From contig CAWELD010000003.1 in NCBI GenBank assembly GCA_963809895.1, positions 544,001-608,000 of the forward strand: a stretch of 64,000 nt of DNA. Reading direction: 5' to 3'. Of the stretch, positions 24,129 to 44,676 are shown piece by piece. Below the pieces are notes generated by a model. The model made no database searches. It worked only from the letters and a program-made list of their open reading frames with translations, and was not told the DNA's origin. The DNA comes from an uncultured Gemmatimonadales bacterium. Its GTDB lineage: Bacteria > Gemmatimonadota > Gemmatimonadetes > Longimicrobiales > Gaopeijiaceae. The number at the start of each line of letters is the position of its first letter. The stretch's first letter is position 1. A program made the position numbers and the translations under genes.

Positions 24129-25294
24129 GAGCCGTCGGGTGCGCGCCACAGGCGGCCGGTCAGGAGCACGAGGGCCAATCCCAGGGCGGCGAAGAGCAGC
24201 GCCAGCACCGGAATGGCCCGACGGGCTCGGCGGATGCCGCCCACCGGCGCCGGCCCCGGCACCGTGCGCAGTGACCAGACCGACCAACGTGTCACGCCCG
24301 AGTCTCTGCGGAAGCCCAGGATCCGGTCGGGTCGCAGGAAGCCCACGAGCAGGACGTCCGTATCGGTCTGCGCCAGTCTGCGACCCAGCGTATCGAGCAG
24401 CTCCACCCTGGACGCCCAGGCGCGTTCGGGATCCGAGACGGCGTAGGTCGGGCCTCCGGGCGCCGCGGAGGGAACGGGCGTGAGAGCGCGGGCCCAGTCG
24501 GGGCCTGCCCTTCGCACGAGGGTCACGAGATTGCCTTCGTCGTCCGAGGTGATGTCCAACATCTCCGGTGGTGCCGGGTGGTCGGGAGCCGGCGGTGGGG
24601 TCTGCGTTCGGGGTGGGAACCAGTCCGTCTCCACGACCAACGAGTCCACCAGCGTGCCGGAGGCGTCGATACGGTCGATGTGGTAGGCCGTGGGCATGAT
24701 CGCCCAGGCGCCCCCTCGCGGGTCCGTGGTGAGCCGTCGCTGAAGGAGGTAGACGCCCCGCCAGTCCAGGGGCTGTGCCGGCCCCGAGGAGCCCTGCGCG
24801 ACGCCGTCGGGCGAGAGGAGGTGAAAGGGCCTCGCCTCCTGTTCGCCGCTCCCTTCGGCGCGGCCCGAGGTCAGCCAATCGCCCCGCTCCAGGCGAATCG
24901 CGTCCTGCACCTGGAGAGGAAGGGGCGTGCGCCGCACCACCCCACCGTCGATGTCCAGCACCACCAGCGCCGGGCGAGCGGCGTCGAAGGCGAAGATGGA
25001 ATCCCCCGTCACCAGCAGGGAGCCGATGGAGTCCAGCGTCGTCGGTCCTCCCAGCCGTCGGAGGAAGCGCCCACCGGGCGAGAAGACCGCGATCCACCCG
25101 GGCGCGCCCTCGGACACGGCATAGAGCCGTCCCTCGGTGTCCATGGCCCAGGCCCGCGGCGCACCCAGGGCACCGGGTCCGTCCCGGTCCCCGAACGATC
25201 CCGCCTCCTCGAGCTCGAGGTGACACGGCGGGCAGATCGCCTGGGCGCCGGAACCCGGCGCAAGAAGCAGGAACAGGCCGAGGAGTGGAGTCAT
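24125..25294 (-). CDS. Exported 6-bladed beta-propeller-like protein with C-terminal membrane anchor
   Basis: Signal peptide; NHL-like blades (DTEGRLYAV, VFSPGGRFLRRLG, IDASGTLV); C-terminal hydrophobic helix; ATGA overlap with the upstream oxidoreductase. Confidence 0.6.
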   Translation of the reverse strand: MTPLLGLFLLLAPGSGAQAICPPCHLELEEAGSFGDRDGPGALGAPRAWAMDTEGRLYAVSEGAPGWIAVFSPGGRFLRRLGGPTTLDSIGSLLVTGDSIFAFDAARPALVVLDIDGGVVRRTPLPLQVQDAIRLERGDWLTSGRAEGSGEQEARPFHLLSPDGVAQGSSGPAQPLDWRGVYLLQRRLTTDPRGGAWAIMPTAYHIDRIDASGTLVDSLVVETDWFPPRTQTPPPAPDHPAPPEMLDITSDDEGNLVTLVRRAGPDWARALTPVPSAAPGGPTYAVSDPERAWASRVELLDTLGRRLAQTDTDVLLVGFLRPDRILGFRRDSGVTRWSVWSLRTVPGPAPVGGIRRARRAIPVLALLFAALGLALVLLTGRLWRAPDGS

Positions 25295-26604
25295 GGCCGG
25301 CCGAATTTCGTCTCGATCTCCACGCCGCAGTCGCGCAGGAACCGCGTCGGCAGCTCTCCGCCGATGAAGACGAACACCTGGCTCGCCGGAACCTGGATTG
25401 CCTGGCGATCCCGGTCGAGGACCACCTCGCCCGGGCGGATCTCCGTCGGCGTCGTTCCCAGGAGAGCTTCCACGGACCCTCGCGAGATCGCCTCCTCCAC
25501 GCGCTCGTGGTTTCGCGGCTTGATGCGGCTGAACGCCTCACGTCGATACGAGATACGGACCTCGTTGCCCGGCTGTTCCGAGAGTGCCAGCGCGGCTTCC
25601 ACCGCGGAGTCGCCGCCGCCCACCACGAGAATGCGATCGGTGGCGTACGCTTCCGGCTCCCGGAGCGAATACGCCACGTGGGGAGCGTCTTCGCCAGGGA
25701 CACCGAGCTTGCGGGGCACCCCTCGCCGCCCGATGGCCAGCACCACCCTGCGGGACTCGTAGATGCCCCGGTCGGTGATCACCCGGAAGTGGAGATCGCC
25801 GACACGATCCACCGACTGCACCGTCTCGCGTGTGTGAACATCGAGGTCGCCTTGCGTGGCGATGTCCTCCCACAGCTCGATGAGCTCCTCCTTGGAGATC
25901 TCGCGCAACGGCAGCTTGCCGTAGCCCGGGACCTGCACCGGGCGCGTCATCACCAGCTTCTTCCGGGGATAATGGCGCACCGTACCCCCGAGATCCTCCT
26001 TTTCCAGGGTAACGGCGGTCAGTCCCCGATGCCGGGCGGTGAGCGACGCCGAGAGGCCGGCGGGACCGCATCCGACGATCAGCAGGTCGAGCAGGTCGCC
26101 GGCAGTGGTGCCACGCCCCTCTTTCAGAATGCCCTCGATGCACTGCCGGCCCTGCTCGAAGGCGTTGGCCACCAGTCCCATGCCGCCGAGCTCTCCCACG
26201 ACGTAGAGCCCGCGCACGTTGGTCTCGAAGTTCTCCTTGACCCGGGGCAGGTCCACGCCTCGCGTCTCGGTTCCGAACACGAGCTGAATGGCGTCCATGG
26301 GGCAGGAGCGCTCACAGAGGCCGTGGCCGATGCACCGCGCCGGAGCCACGGCCACGCCCTGGCCGGCGCGGAGGCCGAGCACCTCCTCGGGGCAGACGCT
26401 CACGCAGTTCGCGATCCCGATGCAGCGCTCGGGGTCGACCACCGGATGCAACGAGACGGGCTCGTGGAGACCGTATTTCAGAGCCTCCACCTCCGCGTCG
26501 TCGGTCTGGCGCTCCTTGCGGCGCATGCGGATCAGGACCGGGAGCGTCACGAGGGCGGTGAGCGCCGACCCGATGCCCCAGACGATGAGCATGTCCCGGT
26601 CCAT
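25291..26604 (-). CDS. Membrane-anchored ferredoxin - FAD/NAD(P)H oxidoreductase fusion (TrxR/FNR-like)
   Basis: ATG 26604 (TGATG overlap); N-terminal TM; CIGIANCVSVCP and CIGHGLCERSCP; GCGPAG FAD motif; LAIGRRG.P; GGGDSA and YRR NADP-binding motifs. Confidence 0.85.
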   Translation of the reverse strand: MDRDMLIVWGIGSALTALVTLPVLIRMRRKERQTDDAEVEALKYGLHEPVSLHPVVDPERCIGIANCVSVCPEEVLGLRAGQGVAVAPARCIGHGLCERSCPMDAIQLVFGTETRGVDLPRVKENFETNVRGLYVVGELGGMGLVANAFEQGRQCIEGILKEGRGTTAGDLLDLLIVGCGPAGLSASLTARHRGLTAVTLEKEDLGGTVRHYPRKKLVMTRPVQVPGYGKLPLREISKEELIELWEDIATQGDLDVHTRETVQSVDRVGDLHFRVITDRGIYESRRVVLAIGRRGVPRKLGVPGEDAPHVAYSLREPEAYATDRILVVGGGDSAVEAALALSEQPGNEVRISYRREAFSRIKPRNHERVEEAISRGSVEALLGTTPTEIRPGEVVLDRDRQAIQVPASQVFVFIGGELPTRFLRDCGVEIETKFGRP

Positions 26605-28205
26605 CAGAACGTCCTCGACAGCGAGAGGCTCAGGTATTGGCCACGCAGGCCGCCGCCCCATTGGCTCCTCAGCCGAGCGGACAACCGGAGACCCGTCGCC
26701 AACGGTGCGTCGGCGCTGAGCTCGCCCGCGTGCGTCGTGGACACGTAGGTCGGGTAGTCCGCCCGATAGAAGCGGTACCCCAGGCGCATGCGGGCTCTGC
26801 CCAGGCCGAAGAGCAGCGCCGGCGCCGCCGAGATCACGCGTCCATCCTCGTTGCTCCAGAACGAGGCGGAGCCCGCGAATCCCAGGCCCGAGCCCCGCGG
26901 GGGTGCGGACAGCGAAGTCGTGGACCCCCAGGACGTGCGCCCGTCTTCCTGCCGGGAGGCGGACGCGTCGAGTCCCAGGTATGCGCCTCCGAGCCTGAAT
27001 CCGAGCCCGCCGTCCACCCGATCGCGGCGGGGCCCGAACGTCTCGGACAGCGTCCACAGGCGGTACCGCTCGTCGCGCGCCACACCCACCCGCAGATCGA
27101 CCACCGGCGAGAGCCTCACGGTGCTGCGCATGCGTAGCTCCGACACCTTCCAGCTTCCGTCGTCGGGATCCCGGTCCACCTGGAGATCCTGGCTGAGTCG
27201 GAAGGGTCCCGCGGCGATCCGCTGACTCAATCCGAGAAAGGTGTGCCCGTTCAGGTCGGTGGTCGGCCGCACCGTGTGCGCGGACAGGTCGGCCCGCCAG
27301 CGCCAGTCCCGGCCGCGCCGCTCCGTGTCGACGAAGACCGACGCCTTGGGGAGCTCTCCACTCGGCGTCTCGTTCCAGCGGTCCGGCTGAAAGCCCACCA
27401 GAAACCCGACGCCGAGGGATTCCGGTCCGTAGCGAACCATGAGCCCGTCCCAGAAGCCGCTGTAGGATTCGGCGGGGCTGTAGAAGCGTCCCAGCGTCAG
27501 GCGGAGTGGGAGGCTGGTGAAGCGGCGATCCAGCGCGGCCTCGTAGACTCGTACCGACGTCGGGCGGAGGAGCGAGGCGTCCTGGGCCGCATAGCGATAC
27601 GCCACGCGGGCGCTGGTGCGCAGCTCGAATCCCCCGACGGCGTCCGGCACGGTGACGTCGAAGCGCAGCGCGGGTGTGGCGAAGGTGCGATCCACGCTCT
27701 CGGGATCGGTCCTGCCCACCTGGGTCGTGGAGTGGCTGGCAGCGAGATCCAGACTCCAGCGACCGTGCGCGGGGCTCGATGCCACGGGCGAGGACCGCTC
27801 CGCGGGTTCGGGGGATTCGGCTGCAGGCGTCGTCGGCCTCGTGTCGACCTTCGGTGCGACCCGTGCCGCCCGCACCATGTGCAGGACGATCGCGCTTCCC
27901 CGGAGCACGTCCAGAGGGGGGCCCACGAAGCTCAGCACGGCACGGGTCGGCGTGCTCGCGGTGACCACCACCACGCCGGACGTGGCCGCGTCGTCCGCCA
28001 GCTCCACGGCGAGGGTGTCTCCGGTGGCCAGACCCTGATCCGTGCCGATGTCGAGGTATAGCGTGTTTCCCGCCACCTGCCGGACGGCGACGGTGAGGGG
28101 TGCCGGCGGCGCGTCCTGCGCCTCGAGGGGCGAGCGCGCCGCGAGCGCGACCGCCACGGCGCACGTCAGCGCCGAAAGGCGTGGGAACACCCCCATGCGC
28201 GCCAT
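26604..28205 (-). CDS. Putative outer-membrane beta-barrel (porin partner of the multiheme cytochromes)
   Basis: Signal peptide, small N-terminal beta domain, Pro-rich linker, then ~380 aa of alternating amphipathic strands ending YLSLSLSRTF (terminal Phe, BAM-type signal); TGATG overlaps on both sides. Confidence 0.7.
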   Translation of the reverse strand: MARMGVFPRLSALTCAVAVALAARSPLEAQDAPPAPLTVAVRQVAGNTLYLDIGTDQGLATGDTLAVELADDAATSGVVVVTASTPTRAVLSFVGPPLDVLRGSAIVLHMVRAARVAPKVDTRPTTPAAESPEPAERSSPVASSPAHGRWSLDLAASHSTTQVGRTDPESVDRTFATPALRFDVTVPDAVGGFELRTSARVAYRYAAQDASLLRPTSVRVYEAALDRRFTSLPLRLTLGRFYSPAESYSGFWDGLMVRYGPESLGVGFLVGFQPDRWNETPSGELPKASVFVDTERRGRDWRWRADLSAHTVRPTTDLNGHTFLGLSQRIAAGPFRLSQDLQVDRDPDDGSWKVSELRMRSTVRLSPVVDLRVGVARDERYRLWTLSETFGPRRDRVDGGLGFRLGGAYLGLDASASRQEDGRTSWGSTTSLSAPPRGSGLGFAGSASFWSNEDGRVISAAPALLFGLGRARMRLGYRFYRADYPTYVSTTHAGELSADAPLATGLRLSARLRSQWGGGLRGQYLSLSLSRTF

Positions 28206-30624
28206 CAGTCCCCCCGTCCTCTGGGGTGGCACGCAAAGCATGCGGACGTCTCGTAGGTGTAGCCCGACACTTCGCTGTGGTCACGGTCGGTGTTGGAGCG
28301 CGTGTGGCAGGTCGTGCACGAGAAGCTCCCGAAGTCGCCGGGCACGGTGTGACAATCCGCGCACTGATTCCACCTGCCCTGATGGGATCCAGAGTAGATC
28401 GGGAAGAACTGGGCGTCGTGATCGAAGGACGTCGCACTCCAGGTGTCCACGTTGTGGCAGGACAGGCAGGTAGTGGGGAAGCCGTCCGTGGCGTGCTCGC
28501 CGTCGTAGTCGCTCTGATGGCAGGCCACGCAGTCGTCCTGGGTGGCGGGGTCGGGGAAGAGCAGCGTGTAGCCGGGCACGGCGTGGCAGTCGGTGCAGGC
28601 GGCGGAGGCGTGGCTGCCCACGAGCTGGAAGCCACCGGAGAGCGCGACGTGGTCGACCTGGGCGCCGTCCCAGCCGGTCTGGGTGTGGCAGGACAGACAG
28701 GTCGTAGGGAAGCCCGAGCCGGCGTGCTCGCCGTCGTAGTCGGCCTGATGGCAGGCCACGCAGTCGTCCTGGGTGGCGGGGTCGGGGAAGAGCAGCGTGT
28801 AGCCGGGTACGGCGTGGCAGTCGGTGCAGGCGGCGGAGGCGTGGCTGCCCACGAGCTGGAAGCCTCCGGAGAGCGCGGCGTGGTCGACCTGGGCGCCGTC
28901 CCAGCCGGTCTGGGTGTGGCAGGACAGGCAGGTAGTGGGGAAGCCGGCCGTGGCGTGCTCGCCGTCGTAGTCGGCCTGATGGCAGGCCACGCAGTCGTCC
29001 TGGGTGGCGGGGTCGGGGAAGACGCAGCGTGTAGCCGGGCACGGCGTGGCAGCCGGGCAGGCGGCTGAGGTGGGCGCCGAGGAGCGGGAAGTCCGGAGGC
29101 GGCGTGATCGAACTCGGCGTCGTCCCAGCGGTCGACGGTGTGACAGGTGAGGCAGGTGGTAGGGAAGCCCGAGCCGGCGTGCTCACCGTCGTAGTCGGCC
29201 TGGTGGCAGGCCACGCAGTCGTCCTGGGTGGCCGGGTCGGGGAAACGCAGCCCCCCGCCCTCGAGGTGACAGGCCGAGCAGTCCTGACTCTGGTGGGCGC
29301 CGAGGAGGGCGAATCCGGTGGTGGCGTGATCGAAGTCGGCGTCGTCCCAGCGGTCGACGGTGTGACAGGTGAGGCAGGTGGTGGGGAAGCCCGAGCCGGC
29401 GTGCTCACCGTCGTAGTCGGCCTGGTGGCAGGCCACGCAGTCGTCCTGGGTGGCGGGGTCGGGGAAACGCAGCCCCCCGCCCTCGAGGTGACAGGCCGAG
29501 CAGTCCTGACTCTGGTGGGCGCCGAGGAGGGCGAATCCGGTGGTGGCGTGATCGAAGTCGGCGTCGTCCCAGCGGTCGACGGTGTGACAGGTGAGGCAGG
29601 TGGTGGGGAAGCCCGAGCCGGCGTGCTCACCGTCGTAGTCGGCCTGGTGGCAGGCCACGCAGTCGTCCTGGGTGGCGGGGTCGGGGAAACGCAGCCCCCC
29701 GCCCTCGAGGTGACAGGCCGAGCAGTCCTGACTCTGGTGGGCGCCGAGGAGGGCGAATCCGGTGATGGCGTGGTCGAAGTCGGGATCCGACCAGGTGTTC
29801 TGCGTGTGGCAGGAGAGGCAGGTGGTGGGGAATCCCGAGCCACCGTGCTCGCGGTCGTAGTCGGCCTGGTGACAGGACGTGCAATCCTCAGGTCCTGCCG
29901 GCGAGAACAGGGTCGCCATGCCGGGGGTCTGGTGGCAGCTCGCGCAGCGCAGTCCCTGGTGGGCTCCCAGGAGGGGGTACCCTCCGCTCGCTCCGAGGTG
30001 ATCGAAGGCGGGTGCGTCGCTCCATCCGACGGTACCGTGACACTGCGTACAATCCATGGGATAGCCCGCAGCCACGTGGTCCAGGGTCTGGGCGCTACGA
30101 TAGGCCGATGCGTGGCATGAGGCGCAGTCGGTGGGGAGGGCCGTGAAGGCCCCTCCGGAGTCGTCGGTGTGGCAGCTCGCGCACGTCACCTGCAGGTGCG
30201 CGCCGGTGAGGGGGAACGACGTGCGGGCGTGCACGGCTTCGCCATCGACATCGTGGAAGGAGTCCGTGCTGTGACAGACTGTGCACTCCTGCACCATGCG
30301 CCCGTCATGTGGGTCTTCGTGGCAGCTGGTGCAGTCGTCCATGTCCACCTGCGGCGCGGCGAAGCGGAGGTCCGTGTGGCAGGTGCTGCATTCCAGCGCG
30401 CCGTGGGTTCCGGTCAGCGGCGTCGGGTGCGTGAAGCGGAGCGTGTCTCGAAGCGGGGTCCACGCCGAGGACGTATGGCAGGCCGCGCAATCCAATCCCT
30501 CAGGGAGCGCGCCATGCGGATTGGTGGACGAGGGACGCTGGCCGAGCGTGGCCGCCGGAAGGCTGGCGGAGGCGAGCAGGGCGAGGGTCAGCGGACGAAG
30601 CACGGACCGGACGAGGGAGCTCAC
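28205..30624 (-). CDS. Giant multiheme cytochrome c (30 intact CxxCH + 1 disrupted), frameshifted at ~29020-29100
   Basis: GTG 30624 with GGAGG RBS and Sec signal peptide; 19 CxxCH before the frame disruption and 11 after (28205-28990 frame); the intervening sequence aligns with neighbouring repeats except for small indels. Confidence 0.88.
28455..29050 (-). repeat. About 2.5 near-identical 231-bp (77-aa, 3-heme) tandem repeats
   Basis: CAGGCCAC recurs at 28521, 28752, 28983; unit with CTDCH/CVACH/CLSCH. Confidence 0.9.
29105..29780 (-). repeat. Three near-identical 222-bp (74-aa, 3-heme) tandem repeats
   Basis: GTGCTCACCG recurs at 29179, 29401, 29623; unit DFDHATTGFALLGAHQSQDCSACH...DDCVACH...TTCLTCHTVDRWDDA. 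Confidence 0.92.
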
Positions 30625-32086
30625 GCGGCACCTCCGTGGCAGTCCGTGCACGAATGACCCAGCGGGCGATAGCGCGTGATGCTTACGCCCCCGGGACCCG
30701 GCTCGGACCGATGGCAGGCGACACACGCCAGCTCCTGATGCACACCCTCCAGGTCGAATCCCGTGACGCGATGATCGAAGTCGGGAATGGCAAAGCTCGT
30801 CTGCTCGTGGCAGGAGTCGCAGCGCCGCCCGTCGAACTGATCGCCGTGGGGATTGTCACCCGCGTGGCAGCTGAGGCAGCTGCTCAGCCCCGACCTGCAT
30901 GACGAAGCGCGTCCCTTCCCGTCGGTGGCACTCGCCGCAGGCGACCGTCAGGTGGGCGCCTTCGAGCTGGAAAGCGTTGTCCGCGTTGTGGCGGCCGATG
31001 TCGTACTGCGCCGGGAGCCATCGATCCTGTCCGTGACAGTCCGTGCACGCGTCGGTGCCGTCGGTGCCCGCCAGGACGCCCTGGTGCTCGTCCTCGTGGC
31101 AGCTGGTGCAGCGCTCGCTCTCCGGCGCGGGGAACGTCCGCGAGGCGGTACCGTCGACGTAGCGGACATGAAGGCCCGGAAGGCCCGCGGCCGTTTCTCG
31201 GTCGTGACACGAGGCGCATGGTGTTTCCGCGTGTCGACCCTGGAGCACGAAACCGGTCGACGCGTGATCGAAGCGGCCCTCGACCCTCGATCGGTTCACC
31301 GGCAACCAGCCGGCGGTGCTGTGGCAGGTGGTACACGCCCCTTGCATGGCCCCGTCGTGCCGATCCTGGTGGCAAGCGGTGCACGTGCCGAACGAGAGAG
31401 GTCGAAAACGCACCGAGACGGGCTCACTCGGCGGGTCCGGGCTCGTGGCAGGAAGAGCAGTCCAGCGCCCGGTGCCGCCCCGTGAGCCGATAGCGCGCGC
31501 GATCGTGGTCGAACCCCGGTGCATCTTCCCAGCTGCCGGTGTCGTGGCATGCGGTGCAGGCCCGGTCGGAGAACTCACCGGCGTGCGGGTCATCGTCCTC
31601 GTGACACGCGGCGCACGTGTTCGGGAGCCCCAGGAACGTCCGGGCCAGCGCCGTGGGGTCCGGCCTGAAGCGGCGCACCGCCGCATCGACGATGCGCTCG
31701 GGGGCGTGACAGTCTCCGCATTCGAGCTCGACATGGCCGCCGTCGAGGGCGAAGCCCGCGTCTTCGTGTGGGAAGCTCGCCGTGTCCAGGCGCACCAGGG
31801 CGAAATCACGCCCGAAGTGCTCCTTGTGACAGGTCGCACAGTCCTCTTCGTTCAGCGAGGCGTGATAGCCTTCTCCACGATCCAGCCGCTGGCGGAGAGG
31901 CTCGTGGCACTCCAGGCACAGGGCGGGGGAGATGCCGGGCTTGCGGAGCTCGTGGCAGGACGTGCACTTCCGCAACCCCTCCAGCTGGGCGTGGGGCGCG
32001 GACAGCTTGCCCGGCGACAGGATCTGTGACCGCGCAGGCAACGGGGCCATGGCGGCCAGTGCCACCAGGATCAGGGCGCGGCTCAA
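30621..32086 (-). CDS. 17-heme cytochrome c (cytochrome c3/c7-like repeats), with two frameshifts (~31435 and ~30890)
   Basis: TTG 32086 (TTGA overlap), Sec signal MSRALILVALAAMAPLPARS-Q, QILSPGKLSAPHAQLEG; 7 + 6 + 4 CxxCH in three successive frames; the last frame ends HSCTDCHGGAA* overlapping the next start (GTGA). Confidence 0.85.
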
Positions 32087-32679
32087 GGCAGCCTCGCCCC
32101 GAGTCGGTCCGAAGCGGCGTCGATCTGCTCGCGCAAGCCGTCGTCGTCGGTCGCCACCCTGGCCCGGGCCCACCACTCGCGGGCGCCGCGCGCGTCTCCT
32201 CGATTCGCCAGCACCGCACCCAGGTCGTACATGGCCACCGCGTCGTCGGGGGCCCGGGCGAGCCGCTCCTCGAGGACGCTTCCGGCCCGATCCCATTCAC
32301 CCAGCTCGCCGTGTGCCGCCGCCAGGTCGAAGTAGGCCTGGGGCTCGTCCGGGTCCAGCGCGACAGCCCGCACGTAGTGGGGGATGGCCTCGCGTGTGCG
32401 GTGTCCATCGTGGAGGAGGCGGGCGAGCTCGAGATGAACGGCGCGGTTGTCGGGGGCGGATTCCAGGTGGTCCTCCAGCGCCCTCACCCGCTGGGTGAAC
32501 GACGCGGCGAGATCTCCGGCCGCGACCGTTCGAACCCCGGCGGCCGTATGGGCTGCAGCCACGGCGTCCGAAGGGGATGCGGGCGACCCGGAACCGGGCA
32601 GACGCCGTGCGACGAAGCCGAGCACGGTGAGAGCAACGGCGGTCAGAAGCATCAGCGGAGCCACCACGCGTGCGATCAT
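32083..32679 (-). CDS. Membrane-anchored TPR protein (possibly CcmI/NrfG-like maturation accessory)
   Basis: N-terminal hydrophobic helix; three TPRs (HLELARLLH, YFDLAAAHG, MYDLGAVLA). Confidence 0.72.
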   Translation of the reverse strand: MIARVVAPLMLLTAVALTVLGFVARRLPGSGSPASPSDAVAAAHTAAGVRTVAAGDLAASFTQRVRALEDHLESAPDNRAVHLELARLLHDGHRTREAIPHYVRAVALDPDEPQAYFDLAAAHGELGEWDRAGSVLEERLARAPDDAVAMYDLGAVLANRGDARGAREWWARARVATDDDGLREQIDAASDRLGARLP

Positions 32680-32681
32680 GG

Positions 32682-33533
32682 TCAGAAGATCCAGGTGTAG
32701 CCGAAGAGAATGGACACCGTGACGTGCACGCCGAGGATCAGGAACATCACGATGGCCAGAGGCAGGTGGACGACGTGCCAGTAGCGGAAGAGTCGCTGGA
32801 ACGGATGCAGGAGGAGAGTCTGCTGCCGGAGCCGCGCCCGTTCGCGCACCAGGTCGGCGAGACGCCGCTGGATCGGGGCCGGCAGCGACCAGGTCTCGAG
32901 CTCGCGCCGCAGACGGCGCCGGCCGAGACGGCCCTTCAGGTCCTCGCGCATGGCCAGCCACAGGGCTCCGATCAGGCTGCGAGGATGGGCGATCCCGTCG
33001 CCGGCTCCCAGGAGGCGAGCCACCGCTTCCGGCGACACGTCGGTCGTGGCGCGGATCTCGGCGGCGAGCGCGCCGGTCCGAGCCTCCACGGCGTCCTGGC
33101 CCAGGAAGCGGCCGTTCACCGTCTTGGGAATGCGCACGTACACGTACCGTCCGAAGATCCCGCTGGCCACGACCACGGCCATGCTCCAGAACGCCACCGA
33201 GACCAATCCCCCGAACTTGAACGTGGTGTGCAGGAGCACGAAGAAGGGGCCCAGCGTGCACAGGAAGATGTGGACCTGCAGCCAGTAGCGGAGGCCGCCG
33301 AGCCGCTCGAGGAAGGCAGCGCGCTTGCGCATGGAGTAGCCGATCACGCCCACGACGATCATGGTGGTGCCAACGATGCCGAGGCCGTGTCCCACGAGCC
33401 CGGTGGGCGAGAACATGGGGGCGAGCTCCGAATAGGCGCGCTGGTCCAGAGGCAGGACGTAGTAGTCCAGTCCCCAGACGAGGGCGGAGCCGGCGGCCCC
33501 GAGCCAGACGACCAGGAGGATGAAGGCGAGCAC
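32682..33533 (-). CDS. His-rich integral inner-membrane protein (putative b-type cytochrome / quinone-interacting subunit)
   Basis: About 5 TM helices with GHGLG, WLQVHIFL, VLLHT, WHVVHLP, GVHV. The ORF extends to ATG 33605, but that ATG abuts the terminator U-tract; GTG 33533 has an AGGA RBS. Confidence 0.72.
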   Translation of the reverse strand: MLAFILLVVWLGAAGSALVWGLDYYVLPLDQRAYSELAPMFSPTGLVGHGLGIVGTTMIVVGVIGYSMRKRAAFLERLGGLRYWLQVHIFLCTLGPFFVLLHTTFKFGGLVSVAFWSMAVVVASGIFGRYVYVRIPKTVNGRFLGQDAVEARTGALAAEIRATTDVSPEAVARLLGAGDGIAHPRSLIGALWLAMREDLKGRLGRRRLRRELETWSLPAPIQRRLADLVRERARLRQQTLLLHPFQRLFRYWHVVHLPLAIVMFLILGVHVTVSILFGYTWIF

Positions 33534-33606
33534 CGGGTTCCTGTCAGGGGGAGGCGGGGTGACGGACGGACCGGCATGCAAGGAGCGGACCGCACGAGGA
33601 CGCATG

Positions 33607-33638
33607 AAAAAAAGACCCGACGCACCATGCGCCGGGCC
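33607..33638 (-). terminator. Intrinsic terminator of the riboswitch expression platform
   Basis: Minus strand GGCCCGGCGCA-UGG-UGCGUCGGGUC (11-bp stem with 2 G-U) followed by U7, located between the aptamer and the first gene. Confidence 0.85.
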
Positions 33639-33664
33639 GTAGAACGGAGCGTTGGCTCCGCCCT

Positions 33665-33748
33665 ACCTGGCAGCTGGGCGATCCACGAGGTGGTGGACCC
33701 CTGGCTTTGCGTCCCGCCGTTGCCGACGGTTTGCCCTTAGCAGGTTGC
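33665..33748 (-). ncRNA. Cyclic di-GMP-I (GEMM-I) riboswitch aptamer
   Basis: Minus strand ACCUG-CUAAG-GGCAAACC-GUCG-GCAA-CGGC-GGGACGCAAAGC-CAGGGGUCC...GGAUCGCCCAGCUGC-CAGGU. It has the GGCAAACC and GGGACGCAAAGC hallmarks, a GNRA tetraloop, and P1 ACCUG/CAGGU in register with the Vc2 aptamer (G20=33735, A47=33708, C92=33670). Confidence 0.9.
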
Positions 33749-33752
33749 TTCA

Positions 33753-33782
33753 AACTTATGCAAATGCCACAAAACGGGTCAA
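33753..33782 (-). promoter_or_regulatory. Putative sigma70 promoter driving the riboswitch and cytochrome operon
   Basis: TTGACC(33782-33777)-N18-TAAGTT(33758-33753) in an AT-rich patch; the implied TSS (~33746) coincides with the aptamer 5' end. Confidence 0.6.
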
Positions 33783-36524: not shown

Positions 36525-37544
36525 ATGAACGGCCGCCGCCTGACTTCCTGGCTCGCCGGCATCCTGCTCGTGTCGGGGTGCGAATCGGTCTCCGTGGAGG
36601 TCGTCCCGGTGGCCCGCGTCGACGTGCAGCCTGGCAGCGCCCAACTCATCGAGGGGGAATCCGTGACGCTTACCGCCGTGGCCCGGTCCGCGGAGGGGAG
36701 CGTCCTCTCCGGGCGAGGTGTGAGTTGGACCAGCGACGCCCCGCTGGTGGCCTCGGTGGACGGGGGCGGGTCCGTTCAGGGGCTCGCGCCGGGTGAGACG
36801 TCCGTCCACGCCCGGGTCGAGGGCATCGACGGCAGCGCGCAGGTCACGGTGCTGGCGGCCCCGACCCTCGAGGTGTCTCGGTCCCTGATCTCTGTGACCG
36901 CGGACGAGGGCGGGAGCGCACCTCAGGAGACGGTGACCGTCTCGAACGGCGGGAGCGGGGACCTCACCGGGCTCACGGCCTCCGTGGCGTACGGCGCCGG
37001 TGCCGCCGTGGGATGGCTGACGGCCGGCCTGTCCAGCACCAGCGCCCCAGCCACCCTCACTCTGGCCGCGTCGGCCGCCGGGCTTTCGGCCGGTGACTAC
37101 GAGGCGACCGTCACGGTGCGCTCTCCACAGCGTGGCGGCCTCGAGGCGACCGTGGGCGTCTCGTTCACGGTAACCACGCCTCCGCCGAGTGTGGTGGTCG
37201 ACCCCGATGCCGTGGGATTGAACGTGTTGGTGGGCACCGTGGGTGACGTCACGCAGACGGTGTCGGTGACGAACGGCGGCGGTGGGGTGCTCGACGGACT
37301 CACCACCGCCATCGAGTACGTCAGCGGCCCCTCTCAGGGATGGCTCACCGCCACCCTCGCCGCGACGGAGGCACCCACGACGCTGGAGCTGCGGGCCTCT
37401 CCGCTCCTCCTGACCGCGGGCACCTACCGGGCGCGGGTCACCGTGAGCTCGCCTGAGGCGCCGGACGCGTCAGGCACGGTCGAGGTCGAGCTCACCGTGG
37501 CCCTCCCCGGCGTGCGTGTGCCGACCGGCGAGGGAGATCGATGA
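36525..37544 (+). CDS. Lipoprotein with Big_2 Ig-like and two BACON-like domains
   Basis: Lipobox LVSGC; VSWTSDAPLVASVD..G.V.GL..G (Big_2); two NGG.G.L.GL...GWL...L repeats. Confidence 0.78.
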   Translation: MNGRRLTSWLAGILLVSGCESVSVEVVPVARVDVQPGSAQLIEGESVTLTAVARSAEGSVLSGRGVSWTSDAPLVASVDGGGSVQGLAPGETSVHARVEGIDGSAQVTVLAAPTLEVSRSLISVTADEGGSAPQETVTVSNGGSGDLTGLTASVAYGAGAAVGWLTAGLSSTSAPATLTLAASAAGLSAGDYEATVTVRSPQRGGLEATVGVSFTVTTPPPSVVVDPDAVGLNVLVGTVGDVTQTVSVTNGGGGVLDGLTTAIEYVSGPSQGWLTATLAATEAPTTLELRASPLLLTAGTYRARVTVSSPEAPDASGTVEVELTVALPGVRVPTGEGDR

Positions 37545-40500
37545 GGGCGCGGTTCGGGATCCGGCCGCTGGCCGCGGTGGGGCTCGCGCTGGCGTTGGGC
37601 GCCACGCTCCTCGTCCAGGCGTGCTCGACCAAGGACGTGGTGGCCGTGGTCATCAGCTCCGTGACGGTGAGCCCGGCGAGCGCCACGTTGATCGTGGGTG
37701 AGACCCAGGACTTCTCGGTCACGGTGCGGGACGAGGACGGCACGGTCGTGCCGGGGACCACCGTGAGCTGGAGCGCCAGCCCCAGCGGCGTTCTATCCAT
37801 CACGCCGGAGGGCCGCGCCGAGGCGCTTCAGCCGGGAGCCGCCACTGTGCGCGCGTCGGTAAACGGCGTGTCGGGGACCGCGGCGGTCACGGTTCAGCCG
37901 CGCCCCAGCATTGCGGTCTCGCCTTCGTCCGTGAGCCTGTTCGCCGCCCGTGGCGGCGCCTCTCCCGATCCGTTGGACGTGCAGATCAGCAACGGCGGAT
38001 CCGGCTCCCTGACGGGTCTGGCGGCGAGCATCAGTTACGCCGCGGGCGAGTCCACCGGTTGGCTTTCCCTGGACCTCTCGGCCACCACGGCCCCGACGAT
38101 CCTGACCATCACGGTGAGCAGCGCGTCGCTGGCGGCGGGAGACTACCACGCTACCGTCTCCATCACATCGGCGGCGGCCAGCAACTCCCCGGTGGAGCTT
38201 CCGGTCGAGCTGTCGGTGACCGAAGACAGCCCGATCATCCGACTGACGCCGGCCAGCGTCGGCTTCGCCGCGGAGAGCGGAGGCGACCCGCCTCCGGACC
38301 AGGTGGTCAAGGTGGCCAACGACGGTGGTGGCACCGTCAGCGGCCTCGCCACCACCATCAGCTACGTGCAGGGTGCGGGTGGATGGTTGGATGCCCAGCT
38401 GTCCAGCACATCGGCGCCGGCCGACCTGGTGCTGTCCGCAGACCCCTCGGGGCTCGCCGAAGGGAGCTACCGAGCCAGCGTCCAGGTCTCCTCGCCGGGG
38501 GCTCTCAACAGCCCGCGTACCGTGACCGTCAGCTTCTCCGTGTCGTCGGAACCCGAAGCCGACCTCTCCGTCACCAAGATCGGCCCGACCTCGGCCGTGG
38601 TCAGCGATACGGTGGACTTCGTGTTGACGGTGAGCAACGGCGGACCCAGGGACGCCACCACCACCCTTCTCATCGACTCCATCCCCGAGGGATTCGACAT
38701 CGTGTCGGCCTCGGGCGGCGGCGTGATCTCCGGACGGGTGGCCATGTGGTCGTTGGGTACGGTAGCCGCCGGCACTTCCGTGGTGGACACGCTCCGGGCC
38801 GTGGCGAAGGCGGTGGGTGCCTGGGTCAATGTGGGATCGGTGGCGTCGGCGACACTGGATCCGGTGACCTCCAACAACCGCAACACGGCCACGGTACAGG
38901 TGCTGCTCCAGACCGCAGGCGTGTCCATCGTCAAGACCGGGCCGTCCGTGGCCAACTTCGGCGACACCATCGAGTACGTGCTGTCCACGGCGAACGCAGG
39001 ACCGGGTCCGGCGGCCAACGTGGTGGTCACCGATTCCCTGCCGGCGGCGGTGGCTGTCGTCTACACGTCGTCGGGTGGCGTGGCGGCTTCGGCTCGCGTG
39101 GTGTGGTCCATGGACACGCTTCAGGCCGGAGCCACGCGGTCTGACACCCTCCGGGTCGAGATCACCGGCACGGGCTCCCTCGAGAACGTGGCCAGGGTGG
39201 CCACCACCAGCCCCGACGTGCTGACGTTGGACAACCGTTCCACGGTGGTGACGTCGGTGGGACGATTGGCGGACCTGGCCATGGCGAAGACCGGGCCCGA
39301 CACCGTGGCCGTGGGTGACACCGTCCGCTACCAGCTGGCCGTGAGCAACACCGGACCCGACTCCGCCACCGGTGTGCAGACGGTGGATTCGCTGCCCGTG
39401 GGGCTCTCTTTCGTGTCGGCGAGCGCCGGCGGTGTCGCCAGCGGTGGCGTCGTGACCTGGTCCGGCCTGGCCGTGGCCCCCGGGGACACCCGGACAGACA
39501 CCGTCGTGGCGGTGGCGACGGCGACGGGCGCGATGATGGATGTGGCGAGGGTCGGTGCGTCCACACCGGATCCCGATAGCACCGACCTGCGCAGCACGTG
39601 GAGCACCGTCGTGAGAGGCGCCGACCTGTCCCTGGCCAAGACGGGGCCGGCTTCGGTGGCCGTGGGCGACACCTTGACCTACGTCCTCACCGTGACAAAC
39701 AGCGGCCCCGATACGGCCGCCGCCGTGGCTCTCACGGACAGCTTGCCCACGGGCGTGACCTTCGTGTCCGCCAGCGGTGGCGGCACCCTCACCGGGACCG
39801 CCGTGACCTGGAGCCTGGGCTCGCTGGCCGGGGCCACCGCCAGTGTGGACACGGTGAAGGTGGTGGCCACGGCGACGGGCGCGAAGACCAACATCGCGCG
39901 CGTGACCAGCACCACGGCGGATCCGGACAGCACCGACCTGCGGGCCGTGGCGGCGACCAACCTCACTGGCGCGGACCTCTCGCTGACCAAGGTGGCTCCG
40001 GCGACGGCGGCCGTGGGCGACACCCTCCTCTACGAGCTGACGGTGACCAACGCGGGGCCCGACGCCGCAGCGGGCGTCGCACTGGTGGACAGTCTGCCCG
40101 GCGGTGTGACGTTCGTGTCCGCCACGGGCGGCGGGACGCCGTCCGGGACGGCGGTGACGTGGGCGCTGGGAGCGATGGCCAGCGGCAGCAGCGTGGTGGA
40201 CACGTTGCGGGTCCTGACCACGGCGGCGGGGTCCACCATGAACGTCGCCAGGGTGTCGAGCTCCACGGCGGACCCCGACTCTCTGGACCGGCGAGCCACC
40301 GCGACCACGGCGGTGGAGGGTGCGGATCTCTCGGTAGCCAAGACCGCGCCCGCCTCGGTGGCGGTGGGCGACACCGTGACCTACGTGGTGACCATTGCCA
40401 ACGCGGGGCCGGACGCCGCCGCCGGGGTGGCCCTCACCGATAGTCTGCCCGCGGGTGTGACCTTCGTGTCGGCCACCAACGGCGGCACACTGGTCGGGAC

Positions 40501-43500
40501 GGCGGTGGGTTGGTCCAAGGGTGCCTTGGCATCCGGAGCGTCCACCGTCGACACGGTCAAGGCGGTCGCCACCATCACGGGAGCCATCGCCAACGTGGCC
40601 CGCGCCTCCAGCGGCACCGCCGATCCGGACACGACGGATCTGCGCGCGACGGCCGCCACCAACGTGGCGGGCGCCGACCTGTCGGTGACCAAGACGGGCC
40701 CGGCCACGGTGGCGGTGGGGGACACCCTCGTGTACGTGATCTCGGTGGCCAACGCGGGACCGTCGGCTGCGGCTACCGTGACGCTCACCGACAGCCTGCC
40801 GGCCGGCGTCACCTACGCGTCGGCGACAGGTGGCGGCACCCTCTCCGGCACGGCCGTGACCTGGGCCAAGGGCAGCCTGGCCAGCGGTTCGGGGACGGTG
40901 GACACGGTGAAGGTCGTGGCGACCACCACGGGGGCGAAGACCAACGTCGCGCGGGTGTCGAGCGCCACCGCCGACCCCGACACCACCGATCTGAGGGCCA
41001 CCGCGTCCACGAATCTCACGGGCGCCGACCTCTCGGTGGCCAAGACCGCGCCGGCCACGGCCTCGGTACTGGACACGCTCTTGTACGTCATCACCACGAC
41101 GAACTCCGGCCCCGACCTGGCGGCTGCGGTCATGCTCGTAGATAGTCTCCCCGCGGGCGTCACCTACGTGTCGGCCACGGGTGGCGGCACGCTTTCGGGC
41201 ACCGCCGTGTCGTGGACGAAGGGCGCCATGCCCAGTGGCACCACCGTCACCGACACGGTGCGGGTGGTGGCGACCACGGCGGGCGTGAAGGCCAACGTGG
41301 CCCGAGTGGCGAGCGTGACCGCCGACCCCGACACGCTGGACCGCCGCGCCACGGCCAGCACCAGCGTCACGGGCGCGGACCTGTCGGTGACGAAATCCGC
41401 CAGCGCGTCGGCGGCGGTCGGCGACACCGTGGTCTACGTGCTGAGCGTGAGCAACGCGGGTCCCGACGCGGCGGTGGGAGTGGTCCTCCGGGACAGCCTG
41501 CCCGCCGGGCTCACGGTAGCCTCGGTCACCAACAGCGGCAGCGTCAGTGGGTCGGTGGTGACCTGGTCCAAGGGACTCCTGGCCAGTGGGGCCAGCACCC
41601 TGGACAGCGTGCGTGCCGTCGCGACCTCGACCGGCACCAAGGTCAATGTGGCCCGCGTATCGAGCTCCACGGCCGATCCCGACTCGACGGACCGGCGCAG
41701 CACGGCGTCGACCACCGTCAGCGGAGCCGATCTGTCCGTGATCAAGATCGCGCCCGGTGCGGTGGGCGTGGGCGACACCATCGCCTATGTCCTGGAGACC
41801 ACGAACGGCGGCCCGGACGCAGCCTCCAGCGTCGTGCTCAGCGACAGTCTGCCGGCGGGCATGACCTTCGTGTCGGCGACGGGGGGCGGGAGCCAGGTGG
41901 GCTCCGCCGTGGTGTGGTCTGTCGGATCGGTGGCCAGCGGCGTGACCCGTACCGACACGCTGAAGGTGGTGGCCGGGGCCACTGGAAACGCCACCAACGT
42001 GGCCCGGGTGTCCAGCCCGACCGCCGACCCGGACTCCACGGATCGCCGTGCCACGGCGGCCACGGCGGTCACGGGCGCAGACCTGTCTCTCACCAAGAGC
42101 GCCTCCGCGTCGGTTCCGCTGGGTGACACCATCCGCTACGTGCTGACCCTGGCCAACAGCGGCCCCGACGCCGCGACCAGCGTCGTGTTGACCGACAGCC
42201 TGCCGGTCGGCGTGACCTTCGTGTCGGCGACCAACGGCGGCACGCTGAGCGGGACGGCGGTGACCTGGAACAAGGGCACGGTAGGCACCGGCGCGGGCAC
42301 GCTGGATACCGTGAGGGTGCTGGCCACGACGACCGGGTCCAAGACCAACATCGCTCGCGTGAGCAGCGCCACGGCCGACCCCGACGCCGCGGATCGCCGC
42401 GCTACCGCGACGACGACGGTCACCGCCGCCGACCTGTCCGTTACCAAGGCGGCCCCCGCCGCCGTCGGCATCGGCGACACGATCCGCTACGTGCTGACCA
42501 TCAGCAACAGCGGACCGAGTGCGGCGAGCGCGGTGGTGCTGACGGACAGCCTGCCGGCAGGCGTGACCTTCGTGTCGGCGACCAACGGCGGCACGCTGAG
42601 TGGGACGGCGGTGACCTGGAACAAGGGCGCGCTGGCCAGCGGGGCCGGCACGCTGGACACGGTGAAGGTGATCGCGAGTAGCGCCGGGACCCCGTCCAAC
42701 GTGGCCCGGGTGAGCAGCCCGACGGCCGATCCGGACACGCTGGACCGCCGGGCCACCGCGTCCACGACGGTGTCCGCCGCCGATCTGTCGGTGACGAAGA
42801 GCGCGACGGCGGCGGTGGGTGTGGGCGACACCATCTACTACGTGCTGACGGTGGCCAACGGAGGGCCAGACGCCGCGACCGGCGTGGTGCTGACGGACAG
42901 CCTGCCGGCGGGCGTGACCTTCGTGTCGGCGACCAACGGCGGCACGCTGAGTGGGACGGCGGTGACCTGGAACAAGGGCGCGCTGGCCAGCGGGGCCGGC
43001 ACGCTGGACACGGTGAAGGTGATCGCGTCCGCCGGGGGGACCCCGTCCAACGTGGCCCGGGTGAGCAGCCCGACGGCCGATCCGGACACGCTGGACCGCC
43101 GGGCCACCGCGTCCACGACGGTGTCCGCCGCCGACCTGTCGGTGACGAAGAGCGCGACGGCGGCCGTGGGTGTGGGCGACACGATCTACTACGTGCTGAC
43201 GGTGGCCAACGGAGGGCCAGACGCCGCGACCGGCGTGGTGCTGACGGACAGCCTGCCGGCGGGCGTGACCTTCGCGTCGGCGACCAACGGCGGCACGCTG
43301 AGCGGTACGGCGGTGACCTGGAACAAGGGCGCGCTGGCCAGCGGGGCCGGCACGCTGGATACGGTGAAGGTGATCGCGTGCAGCCGCGGGGACCCCGTCC
43401 AACGTGGCCCGGGTGAGCAGCCCGACGGCCGATCCGGACACGCTGGACCGCCGGGCCACCGCGTCCACGACGGTGTCCGCCGCCGACCTGTCGGTGACGA

Positions 43501-44676
43501 AGAGCGCGACGGCGGCCGTGGGTGTGGGCGACACGATCTACTACGTGCTGACGGTGGCCAACGGAGGGCCAGACGCCGCGACCGGCGTGGTGCTGACGGA
43601 CAGCCTGCCGGCGGGCGTGACCTTCGCGTCGGCGACCAACGGCGGCACGCTGAGCGGCACGGCGGTGACCTGGAACAAGGGCGCGCTGGCCAGCGGGGCC
43701 GGCACGCTGGATACGGTGAAGGTGATCGCGTCCGCCGGGGGGACCCCGTCCAACGTGGCCCGGGTGAGCAGCCCGACGGCCGATCCGGACACGCTGGACC
43801 GCCGGGCCACCGCGTCGACCACCGTTACGGCCGCCGATCTGTCGGTCACCAAGACCGCATCGGCGGCCACCGTACCGGTGGGTGACACCATGGAGTACGA
43901 AGTCGTGCTCTCCAACGCGGGTCCCGATGCCGCGACCAGCGTGGTGCTGACCGACAGCCTGCCGGCGGACGTGACCTTCGTGTCGGCGACCAACGGCGGC
44001 ACGCTGAGCGGTACGGCGGTGACCTGGAACAAGGGCGACGCTGGCCAGCGGCTCGTCCACGACCGACACGGTGCGGGTCGTGCCGTCGGCGACGGGCTCC
44101 GTGACCAACGTGGCGCGCGTCAGCAGCAGTACGGCGGATCCCGATACGCTGGACTGGCGATCCACCACCACGACCACGGTGACGGGGGCGGACCTCTCCC
44201 TCATCAAGTCGGCCACGGCCTCGGTGGGCGTGGGTGGCACCATCGAGTACGTGCTCACCCTCACCAACAGCGGGCCCGACGACGCCCTGAACGTGGTCGT
44301 CACCGACAGTTTGCCGGCCTCGGTGACCTTCGTGTCCGCGACCAACGGCGGGACGTTGAGCGGCACCGCGGTGACCTGGAACAAGGGCACCGTCGCAAGC
44401 GGGGTCACCATCGAAGACACCGTCATGGTGACCGCCGGCTCCGCGGGCAGTCTCGAGAACATCGCCCGCGTCTCGACCACCACGGCGGATCCCGACTCCA
44501 CCGACCACCGGGCCACGGCCAGTACCTCGGTCGCCCTGCAGCAGGAATCACAGCAGGAGCAGGCTCCGCAGCCGGAGGCCCGGCTCCCCTCGCAGCCCTT
44601 CCCGGGATCCCCGGACCGGCCTGATGTGGTCCGTCCCGCCGAGCCTGCGCAGGCCGCTCGTCGCCCCTCCCGGTGA
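37541..44676 (+). CDS. Giant surface lipoprotein: Big_2 + 2 BACON-like + 17 DUF11 repeats (~2380 aa; frameshifts at ~43380 and ~44038)
   Basis: Lipobox LVQAC; 17 units starting ADLSVTK-like with N.GPD.A..VVLTDSLP.GVTFVSA; ORFs 37541-43885, 43404-44624 and 44071-44676 join into one repeat array after two +1 shifts. Confidence 0.85.
42533..43822 (+). repeat. Near-identical 351-bp (117-aa) DUF11 tandem repeats
   Basis: GACGGACAG recurs at 42541, 42892, 43243 and 43595 (351, 351, 352 bp; the last interval contains the +1 indel). Confidence 0.92.

Follow-up and report, generated by a model that had tools for sequence, protein, structure and literature searches.

How are electrons fed into a chain of some 48 hemes that may lead out of the cell? 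The question is raised by an operon on the minus strand (33744-25291) of a 64,000-nucleotide stretch of DNA, hereafter the window, from an uncultured Gemmatimonadales bacterium (assembly GCA_963809895.1, contig CAWELD010000003.1, positions 544,001 to 608,000). In this operon a riboswitch and a terminator are followed by six tightly packed, co-oriented genes, designated A to F, whose neighbouring stop and start codons abut or overlap, as the first-pass annotation of the sequence had described (Table 1). Here we report that, judged by its genes and motifs, the operon is a PCC3-type cassette, a member of a predicted family of porin-cytochrome complexes, and that its last gene, coding for an anchored ferredoxin/flavoprotein with NADP-type motifs, is a fifth core gene of this cassette in relatives. 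We lean towards a model in which NADPH would pass electrons through F and the inner-membrane protein A to the cytochromes and on to the surface.

Table 1. Operon, leader and adjoining gene G, in window coordinates
Feature	Position	Strand	Basis or remark
c-di-GMP-I (GEMM-I) riboswitch aptamer	33744-33665	-	Rfam c-di-GMP-I clan, 62.4 bits, E 2.5e-12, above gathering score
Expression platform: spacer hairpin, then intrinsic terminator	33664-33606	-	z -4.5
Intrinsic terminator	33638-33606	-	stem 33638-33614, U7 tail
A: 283-aa five-helix inner-membrane protein, PCC3 type	33533-32682	-	motifs and model
B: N-anchored TPR protein, optional	32679-32083	-	TPR domain; 24/47 loci
C: 17-heme periplasmic cytochrome c, Sec-type signal peptide	32086-30621	-	two frameshifts in assembly
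D: ~31-heme cytochrome c of 3-heme tandem repeats	30624-28205	-	one net frameshift
E: outer-membrane beta-barrel, ~22 strands, N-terminal 80-aa beta domain, C-terminal Phe	28205-26604	-	fold model
F: 437-aa N-anchored cytoplasmic ferredoxin/flavoprotein	26604-25291	-	domain matches
G: 389-aa secreted-looking protein, no family, overlaps stop of F by ATGA	25294-24125	-	

An operon of the PCC3 type

In the published work, represented here and below by excerpts of the cited papers, PCC3 is made up of a porin, a pair of very large cytochromes and an inner-membrane protein (IMP) with WX3HX13H and SGXXG motifs, for which a link to quinones was hypothesised (He et al. 2017, PMC5566968). The clusters of Sideroxydans ES-1 run IMP, cytochrome, cytochrome, porin (PMC8788666), and two further accounts treat PCC3 as a set of four genes that is functionally unverified (PMC10734462; 10.1101/2025.02.27.639646). 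Protein A agrees with the published IMP (~300 aa, five helices) in size, in the five helices of its structure model (predicted local distance difference test score, pLDDT, 93.5), in its two WX3HX13H motifs on transmembrane helices 3 and 5, and in its SGXXG on helix 4; of 111 homologues, 101 keep the former motifs and 108 the latter. Its translation most likely starts at GTG 33533, which is preceded by AGGA and gives the length found in most homologues, and less likely at an ATG beside the terminator. A is predicted to hold two b hemes across the membrane and has a basic 120-aa cytoplasmic helical domain; by the positive-inside rule, its two basic loops would lie on the cytoplasmic side. Because A has the defining motifs and the gene order agrees, with a porin, two multiheme cytochromes and the conserved IMP all present, we assign the operon to PCC3. 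The published definition and the presence of an F relative beside the founding Sideroxydans cluster show that the cluster is not a new kind. The lineage guessed at first pass, Gemmatimonadota, agrees with same-genus relatives (Gemmatimonadota / Longimicrobiales).

C contains 17 intact CxxCH motifs and D 30, together 47, and D has a further, garbled one. This number is far above chance, since the other five frames of the window contain only one further such motif. With ~24 residues per heme and a tandem-repeat architecture, D fits the PCC3 cytochromes, which have very many hemes, repeats and under ~30 residues per heme. The total of ~48 hemes proposed at first pass stands, but neither cytochrome is an open frame here, a fact that the first-pass annotation passed over: the motifs of C are spread over three frames (7+6+4, with breaks near 31427 and 30882) and those of D over two (19+11, with a break at ~29100-29020, where one repeat type gives way to another). 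Relatives have intact frames for both, with mostly 17-26 hemes in C and ~10-67 in D. The three frameshifts are likely assembly errors, which is not proven for two of them, and the number of repeats in D is uncertain. Both cytochromes have ordinary Sec-type signal peptides, and a lipobox pattern is found in 0/52 D-type and 3/76 C-type starts, so that the delivery to the cell surface claimed earlier is not borne out by their export signals. Elsewhere in the genome there are at least three other multiheme cytochrome clusters with 8-17 motifs per frame (C10:1138969-1162400, C3:2185651-2245363 and others), while A, E and F are each single-copy; one of three matches to the cytochrome c assembly family PF01578 (C3:367928-368497) has a TAG inside the matched stretch.

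The product of E (533 aa) is modelled as a large outer-membrane barrel (pLDDT 89) ending in Phe, as had been expected, and has no Pfam or NCBIfam family. Its best fold matches are 22-strand TonB-dependent barrels (Z 17.5, root-mean-square deviation (rmsd) 3.8 over 363 residues); MtrB is absent among the fold matches listed, which is compatible with MtrB likeness all the same. The TPR domain of B is likewise confirmed, and B moves with D and E in two rearranged loci (L056, L068), where the cassette is split into A+C+F and B+D+E.

Set beside known systems, the operon is closest to the ES-1 clusters (Slit_0867-0870 and Slit_1446-1449), which it resembles in IMP motifs and size, gene order and heme-rich repeat cytochromes and, for the first of them, in an F-type flavoprotein behind the porin. 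It differs in that the barrel has 533 aa and the TPR protein a gene of its own, where the ES-1 porins are of 744 and 862 aa, one of them annotated with a TPR region, and in its cyclic di-GMP (c-di-GMP) riboswitch and Gemmatimonadota host; PCC3 as published has four genes and a hypothesised quinone link. MtrCAB and OmbB-OmaB-OmcB also cross the outer membrane with a barrel and multiheme cytochromes; here, there is no lipoprotein cytochrome, the barrel is smaller, and an inner-membrane input of the operon's own takes the place of CymA, ImcH or CbcL. Comparison with MtrAB, proposed at first pass, led to rejection of MtrA membership, the best score against the decaheme DmsE/MtrA family being 41 bits for a cut-off of 192. 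The PCC4 and porin-less clusters of He et al. 2017 share an HX13H IMP, a multiheme cytochrome and a further redox protein with the operon, but have cytochromes of 4, 5 and 10 hemes or single small ones, and in the excerpt their redox partner is not read as an electron source; PCC4 membership was rejected because the three periplasmic cytochromes of 4, 5 and 10 hemes are absent. The only other specific item in the further literature (PMC7399161, PMC13013709, PMC5317091) is a Lentimicrobium cluster with 61- and 20-heme cytochromes.

Flavoprotein F and its association with A

The order of parts in F is an N-terminal helix, a two-cluster ferredoxin and a thioredoxin-reductase (TrxR)-type FAD/NADP domain, in keeping with the membrane-anchored ferredoxin/flavoprotein of the first-pass annotation. 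The last domain is circularly permuted: the FAD-binding segment that is usually C-terminal (residues 119-160) precedes the GxGxxG motif. The NADP-type motifs (GGGDSA, Y-R and a further Arg) are invariant in 48/48 homologues. In the ferredoxin part, the second cluster motif has His for Cys in 48/48 close and 49/50 more distant homologues, and the other motif lacks one Cys in 43/48 close homologues, a residue present in 32/50 distant ones. We take these motifs to mark a preference for NADPH and raised cluster potentials, and predict a His-ligated [4Fe-4S] and a [3Fe-4S] cluster for F here. The solved proteins closest to F in sequence are YpdA/Bdr and TrxR-type ferredoxin-NADP reductases (FNRs). 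A role of F as thioredoxin reductase was rejected, the redox-active CxxC being absent (no Cys at residues 310-316 in 48/48), as was one as YpdA/Bdr bacillithiol disulfide reductase (TIGR04018, 159 bits against a cut-off of 340). In six loci where F lies directly behind A (L114, L118, L120, L136, L139, L140), an additional CxxC...CxxC segment, resembling a zinc ribbon, is inserted between its anchor and the ferredoxin.

F is also tightly associated with A across genomes. Among 80 related loci, 47 reach 8 kb past A and were retained, the 33 shorter ones being dropped; in these long loci F is present in 46 and E in 44 by tblastn, or 46 after a profile found two divergent barrels, E being kept with D. 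The TPR gene B occurs in only 24, and the six-gene set proposed earlier is therefore reduced to a co-conserved core of five. A second set of 28 loci, chosen for long contigs from 88 A-positive genomes and including three repeats of earlier loci, has F and two cytochromes in 28/28 and E in 27/28; in 23 of them F adjoins A, divergently in 15 and directly behind it in 8, and three arrangements were seen. In the host phylum, 401 genomes were searched: 85 contain both A and F, 3 only A and 4 only F, and 309 have neither, so that the two coincide in 85 of the 92 genomes carrying either; as these genomes are kin, no statistic is attached to the figure. A sample of the phylum Bacteroidota gave a strong A match in 32/301 genomes, 20 of which were examined: 19 have the full cassette including F and one a lone broken A. 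The whole cassette, together with a ccsA heme-attachment gene, is also carried on a plasmid of Emticicia oligotrophica (L098; NC_018749.1, 78197-89995), a possible route of spread. Two exceptional loci, one that retains A with remnants of cytochromes, E and F both being absent within 10 kb (L054), and one with a lone truncated A (L153), look like decayed cassettes. Taken with the motifs of F, this very tight co-inheritance supports the NADP(H)-linked input module that the first-pass annotation had proposed.

A relative of F also adjoins the founding PCC3 cluster. The gene behind the porin of the first ES-1 cluster, Slit_0866, codes for a pyridine nucleotide-disulfide oxidoreductase of 430 aa (PMC12016527), and five peptides of this protein match F at 32/49 positions (shuffle maximum 24); the proteobacterial PCC3 was compared through ES-1 supplement rows and proteomic peptides, of which one cytochrome peptide resembles, by eye, the repeat of C and D. 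The excerpts of papers on the ES-1 PCC3 do not note this neighbour. The nearest published suggestion concerns another porin-cytochrome group, in which an FNR gene lies near 7/11 clusters and 'potential functional coupling' was proposed (PMC13264449); that group is built around a large decaheme cytochrome, and the excerpt gives no pairing with an IMP and no mechanism. An NADPH-input reading of PCC3 was not found in the literature searched, outside which most subscription papers lie, and relative to that literature the fifth core gene, the NADPH-input model and the local c-di-GMP control are new.

Paralogues of A bear on the same point. Short forms (~190-240 aa; L124-L135) adjoin one cytochrome of 8-21 hemes, and 7/12 of their loci have a different, upstream pyridine-nucleotide (Pyr_redox_2) flavoprotein; neighbours match a flavoprotein family in 8/12 if one PCC4-like locus, with cNMP/Fe-S and FHA proteins, is counted, and in three of the remaining loci the paralogue follows a NAGPA-family gene. 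Flavoproteins beside the short paralogues fit the notion that the A family is generally fed from the cytoplasm. Longer or fused forms of A were not found among 8000 candidates, a weak test; one metagenomic protein of 418 aa (P0213) that combines parts of A with parts of F has the look of a chimera and was set aside.

From NADPH to the outside: a model and its rivals

An anchored NADP-type flavo-ferredoxin that stays with a predicted two-heme membrane protein is most simply accounted for as donor and carrier, and on this ground we consider the route from NADPH via F, A and the cytochromes to the surface somewhat better than an even prospect. F, anchored on the cytoplasmic face, would oxidise NADPH at its FAD and, through a putative contact with A, pass electrons one at a time over its pair of Fe-S clusters to the heme of A on the cytoplasmic side. 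The two stacked b hemes of A would carry them over the inner membrane to C, which would span the periplasm, and D, held in or beyond barrel E, would hand them to acceptors located at the outer membrane or beyond it, such as Fe/Mn oxides, humics or partner cells, with B as a candidate assembly helper of the D-E part. Judged by textbook potentials, electrons would run downhill on their way out, and for the way in a donor near -500 mV would be required. Pulled outward by the membrane potential, such transfer would spend rather than conserve energy, which makes export of reductant more likely than respiration; the system may thus serve as strong-reductant export or as a redox valve, here under c-di-GMP control.

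In its logic, the chain would resemble an NADPH oxidase or ferric reductase whose parts are encoded by two genes and to which a heme wire has been added. NADPH oxidases, ferric reductases and MsrQ likewise lead from pyridine nucleotide over flavin and membrane heme(s) to an outside acceptor and have His pairs 14 residues apart; here, the dehydrogenase is of TrxR type with a ferredoxin on a separate anchored chain, the output is a multiheme wire, and the homology of A is weak only. The fused plant-FNR-type FAD/NADPH domain of that class is absent, F being separate and of TrxR type. Weak matches to Ferric_reduct (E up to 0.1; best E 2.8e-5) were obtained for 24/111 members of the A family, A itself not among them, and the de novo two-heme bundle 4D2 compares with A at Z 8.1 (rmsd 2.7 over 103), which is within helical-bundle noise. 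A precedent from the same heme-membrane superfamily is MsrQ, which receives electrons from a cytosolic NADH oxidoreductase and whose quinone possibly acts as an acceptor (PMC12525009).

Several points weigh against the NADPH-fed conduit. Co-occurrence among kin is neither independent nor proof of contact between A and F. A itself has no significant Pfam match, and the fold search with it returned only generic helical bundles, none significant. Flavoproteins are lacking, among the open reading frames scanned or listed, in 4/12 loci of the short paralogues. In ES-1, the excerpts show no flavoprotein adjoining the second cluster (Slit_1446-1449), and a second F-like gene, Slit_0525, is unlinked to the PCC3 clusters. 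The lack of a lipobox leaves the export of D unexplained, both cytochromes are split in this assembly, and the cost to the membrane potential is odd for so costly a wire.

The missing neighbour in the second ES-1 cluster would suit a quinone-linked PCC3, in which A would be a quinone-active cytochrome b tied to the menaquinone pool and F a side branch, passing electrons from NADPH to quinone or acting as a reactivation or assembly reductase. To our knowledge, all characterised porin-cytochrome conduits are quinol-fed, and 20/111 members of the A family weakly resemble hydrogenase-type cytochrome b (Ni_hydr_CYTB, E up to 0.1); a quinone link is also what He et al. 2017 (PMC5566968) hypothesised. 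Against this, F is retained in nearly all genomes that have A and rarely occurs elsewhere, it stays beside A through rearrangement, and the A paralogues recruit another flavoprotein; we regard the quinone-linked reading as unlikely. An inward conduit, by which F would make NADPH with electrons taken up from outside, be it from Fe(II) minerals, reduced humics or a partner cell, seems improbable to us. TrxR-type FNRs are reversible, but inward flow would be opposed by the membrane potential, and ligation by His or with a missing Cys usually raises the potential of an Fe-S cluster; most carriers, moreover, appear heterotrophic. PCC3 does occur in iron oxidisers (PMC5566968), and Slit_0866 is higher in late magnetite than in late Fe(II)-citrate cultures (PMC12016527; log2 difference 2.35 and 2.55, q 0.018 and 0.0027, from 4 unique peptides with many missing values), whereas both ES-1 clusters are down on Fe(II) relative to thiosulfate (PMC8788666).

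A function without extracellular transfer, the hemes serving as a periplasmic electron store or in periplasmic or surface chemistry (superoxide, repair, or metal uptake via E) fed by F and A, would fit the missing lipobox of D and the likeness of E to 22-strand TonB-dependent barrels. Emticicia oligotrophica, whose plasmid bears the cassette, is an aerobe, and the short A paralogues with one cytochrome and a flavoprotein recall the porin-less clusters of He et al. (PMC5566968). We give this reading a low probability: E is kept with D in 46/47 long loci, and the hemes of C hold steady while those of D vary widely, as would be expected if C spans a periplasm of fixed width and D reaches outward. 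Finally, the operon could be decaying in this strain, with three real frameshifts and truncated cytochromes; three breaks within 3.9 kb stand against none in 24 control genes over 35.7 kb. The base at 31427 is, however, missing from near-identical contigs of two independent runs, and the alignment of a third contig ends at 30883, at the second break in C, which is weaker evidence; among the contigs listed, none bridges the second and third frameshifts. As the break in D is a blend of two tandem-repeat types and A, B, E and F are intact, decay is very improbable.

Leader, neighbouring genes and biological meaning

The riboswitch and terminator that the first-pass annotation had placed ahead of the operon are both recovered (Table 1). 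The pocket of the aptamer has G, A and C at the positions that we take, following the Vc2 numbering, to be G20, A47 and C92. In class I riboswitches, G20 or A20 distinguishes specificity for c-di-GMP from that for cyclic GMP-AMP (cGAMP) (PMC6140456); the G found here points to c-di-GMP as the predicted ligand, and cGAMP specificity was rejected. Among nine leaders examined, seven have a hairpin and a terminator with U-run, and the ON or OFF direction of the switch is not readable from their folding. Riboswitches, all with G at position 20, were found in 14/78 and 0/25 leaders of related loci, with a profile built partly from the same matches, so that the proposed control by cyclic dinucleotide holds for a real, c-di-GMP-type element but is lineage-specific, limited to near relatives. 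Cytochrome genes of Geobacter are reportedly controlled by cGAMP (GEMM-Ib) riboswitches; the arrangement is alike, a class I element ahead of multiheme cytochrome genes, and the G20 here differs. The promoter claimed at first pass fared less well: a sigma-70 consensus scan gave 0 sites, and a TTGACC...TAAGTT stretch, which has counterparts in several relatives, is no more than a hint of one.

Four further c-di-GMP-I riboswitches occur in the genome (C3:2404384-2404463 and L101-L103, the first being L099); one is nearly identical to the leader copy and precedes what looks by eye like a site-2-protease-like membrane protein, and the others precede secreted proteins. A protein with GGDEF, receiver and HD domains is encoded 25 kb from the operon (8357-6270, minus strand), so that c-di-GMP turnover is encoded nearby. 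Downstream of F, gene G has no match in the 80 related loci, which places it outside the conserved cassette as judged by sequence, and it is abutted by a co-oriented gene for a nucleoside hydrolase with a lipoprotein-like leader (24128-23070, minus strand). On the plus strand (37541-44624) lies a giant DUF11-repeat surface protein with near-identical repeats and, like D at its break, an apparent frame change near its end.

More tentatively than the route itself, we suggest that PCC3 may be a widespread, quinone-independent route wiring cytoplasmic NADPH to the outside, a trans-envelope chain of the NADPH oxidase kind pulled by the membrane potential. If so, it could deliver electrons below the potential of any quinol-fed conduit, as to low-potential minerals, humics or methanogen partners, and would be a second way, beside the quinone pool, of coupling metabolism to extracellular acceptors. 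Its carriers include common heterotrophs of soil and sediment that do not count as electroactive, A being present in 88/401 genomes of the host phylum (about a fifth) and 32/301 of the sampled Bacteroidota (a tenth). Carriers such as Sideroxydans ES-1 and Emticicia oligotrophica are in culture, and F is a small protein with a measurable donor and acceptor, which makes the cluster directly testable; were the model to hold, the reading of PCC3 in iron oxidisers would change as well.

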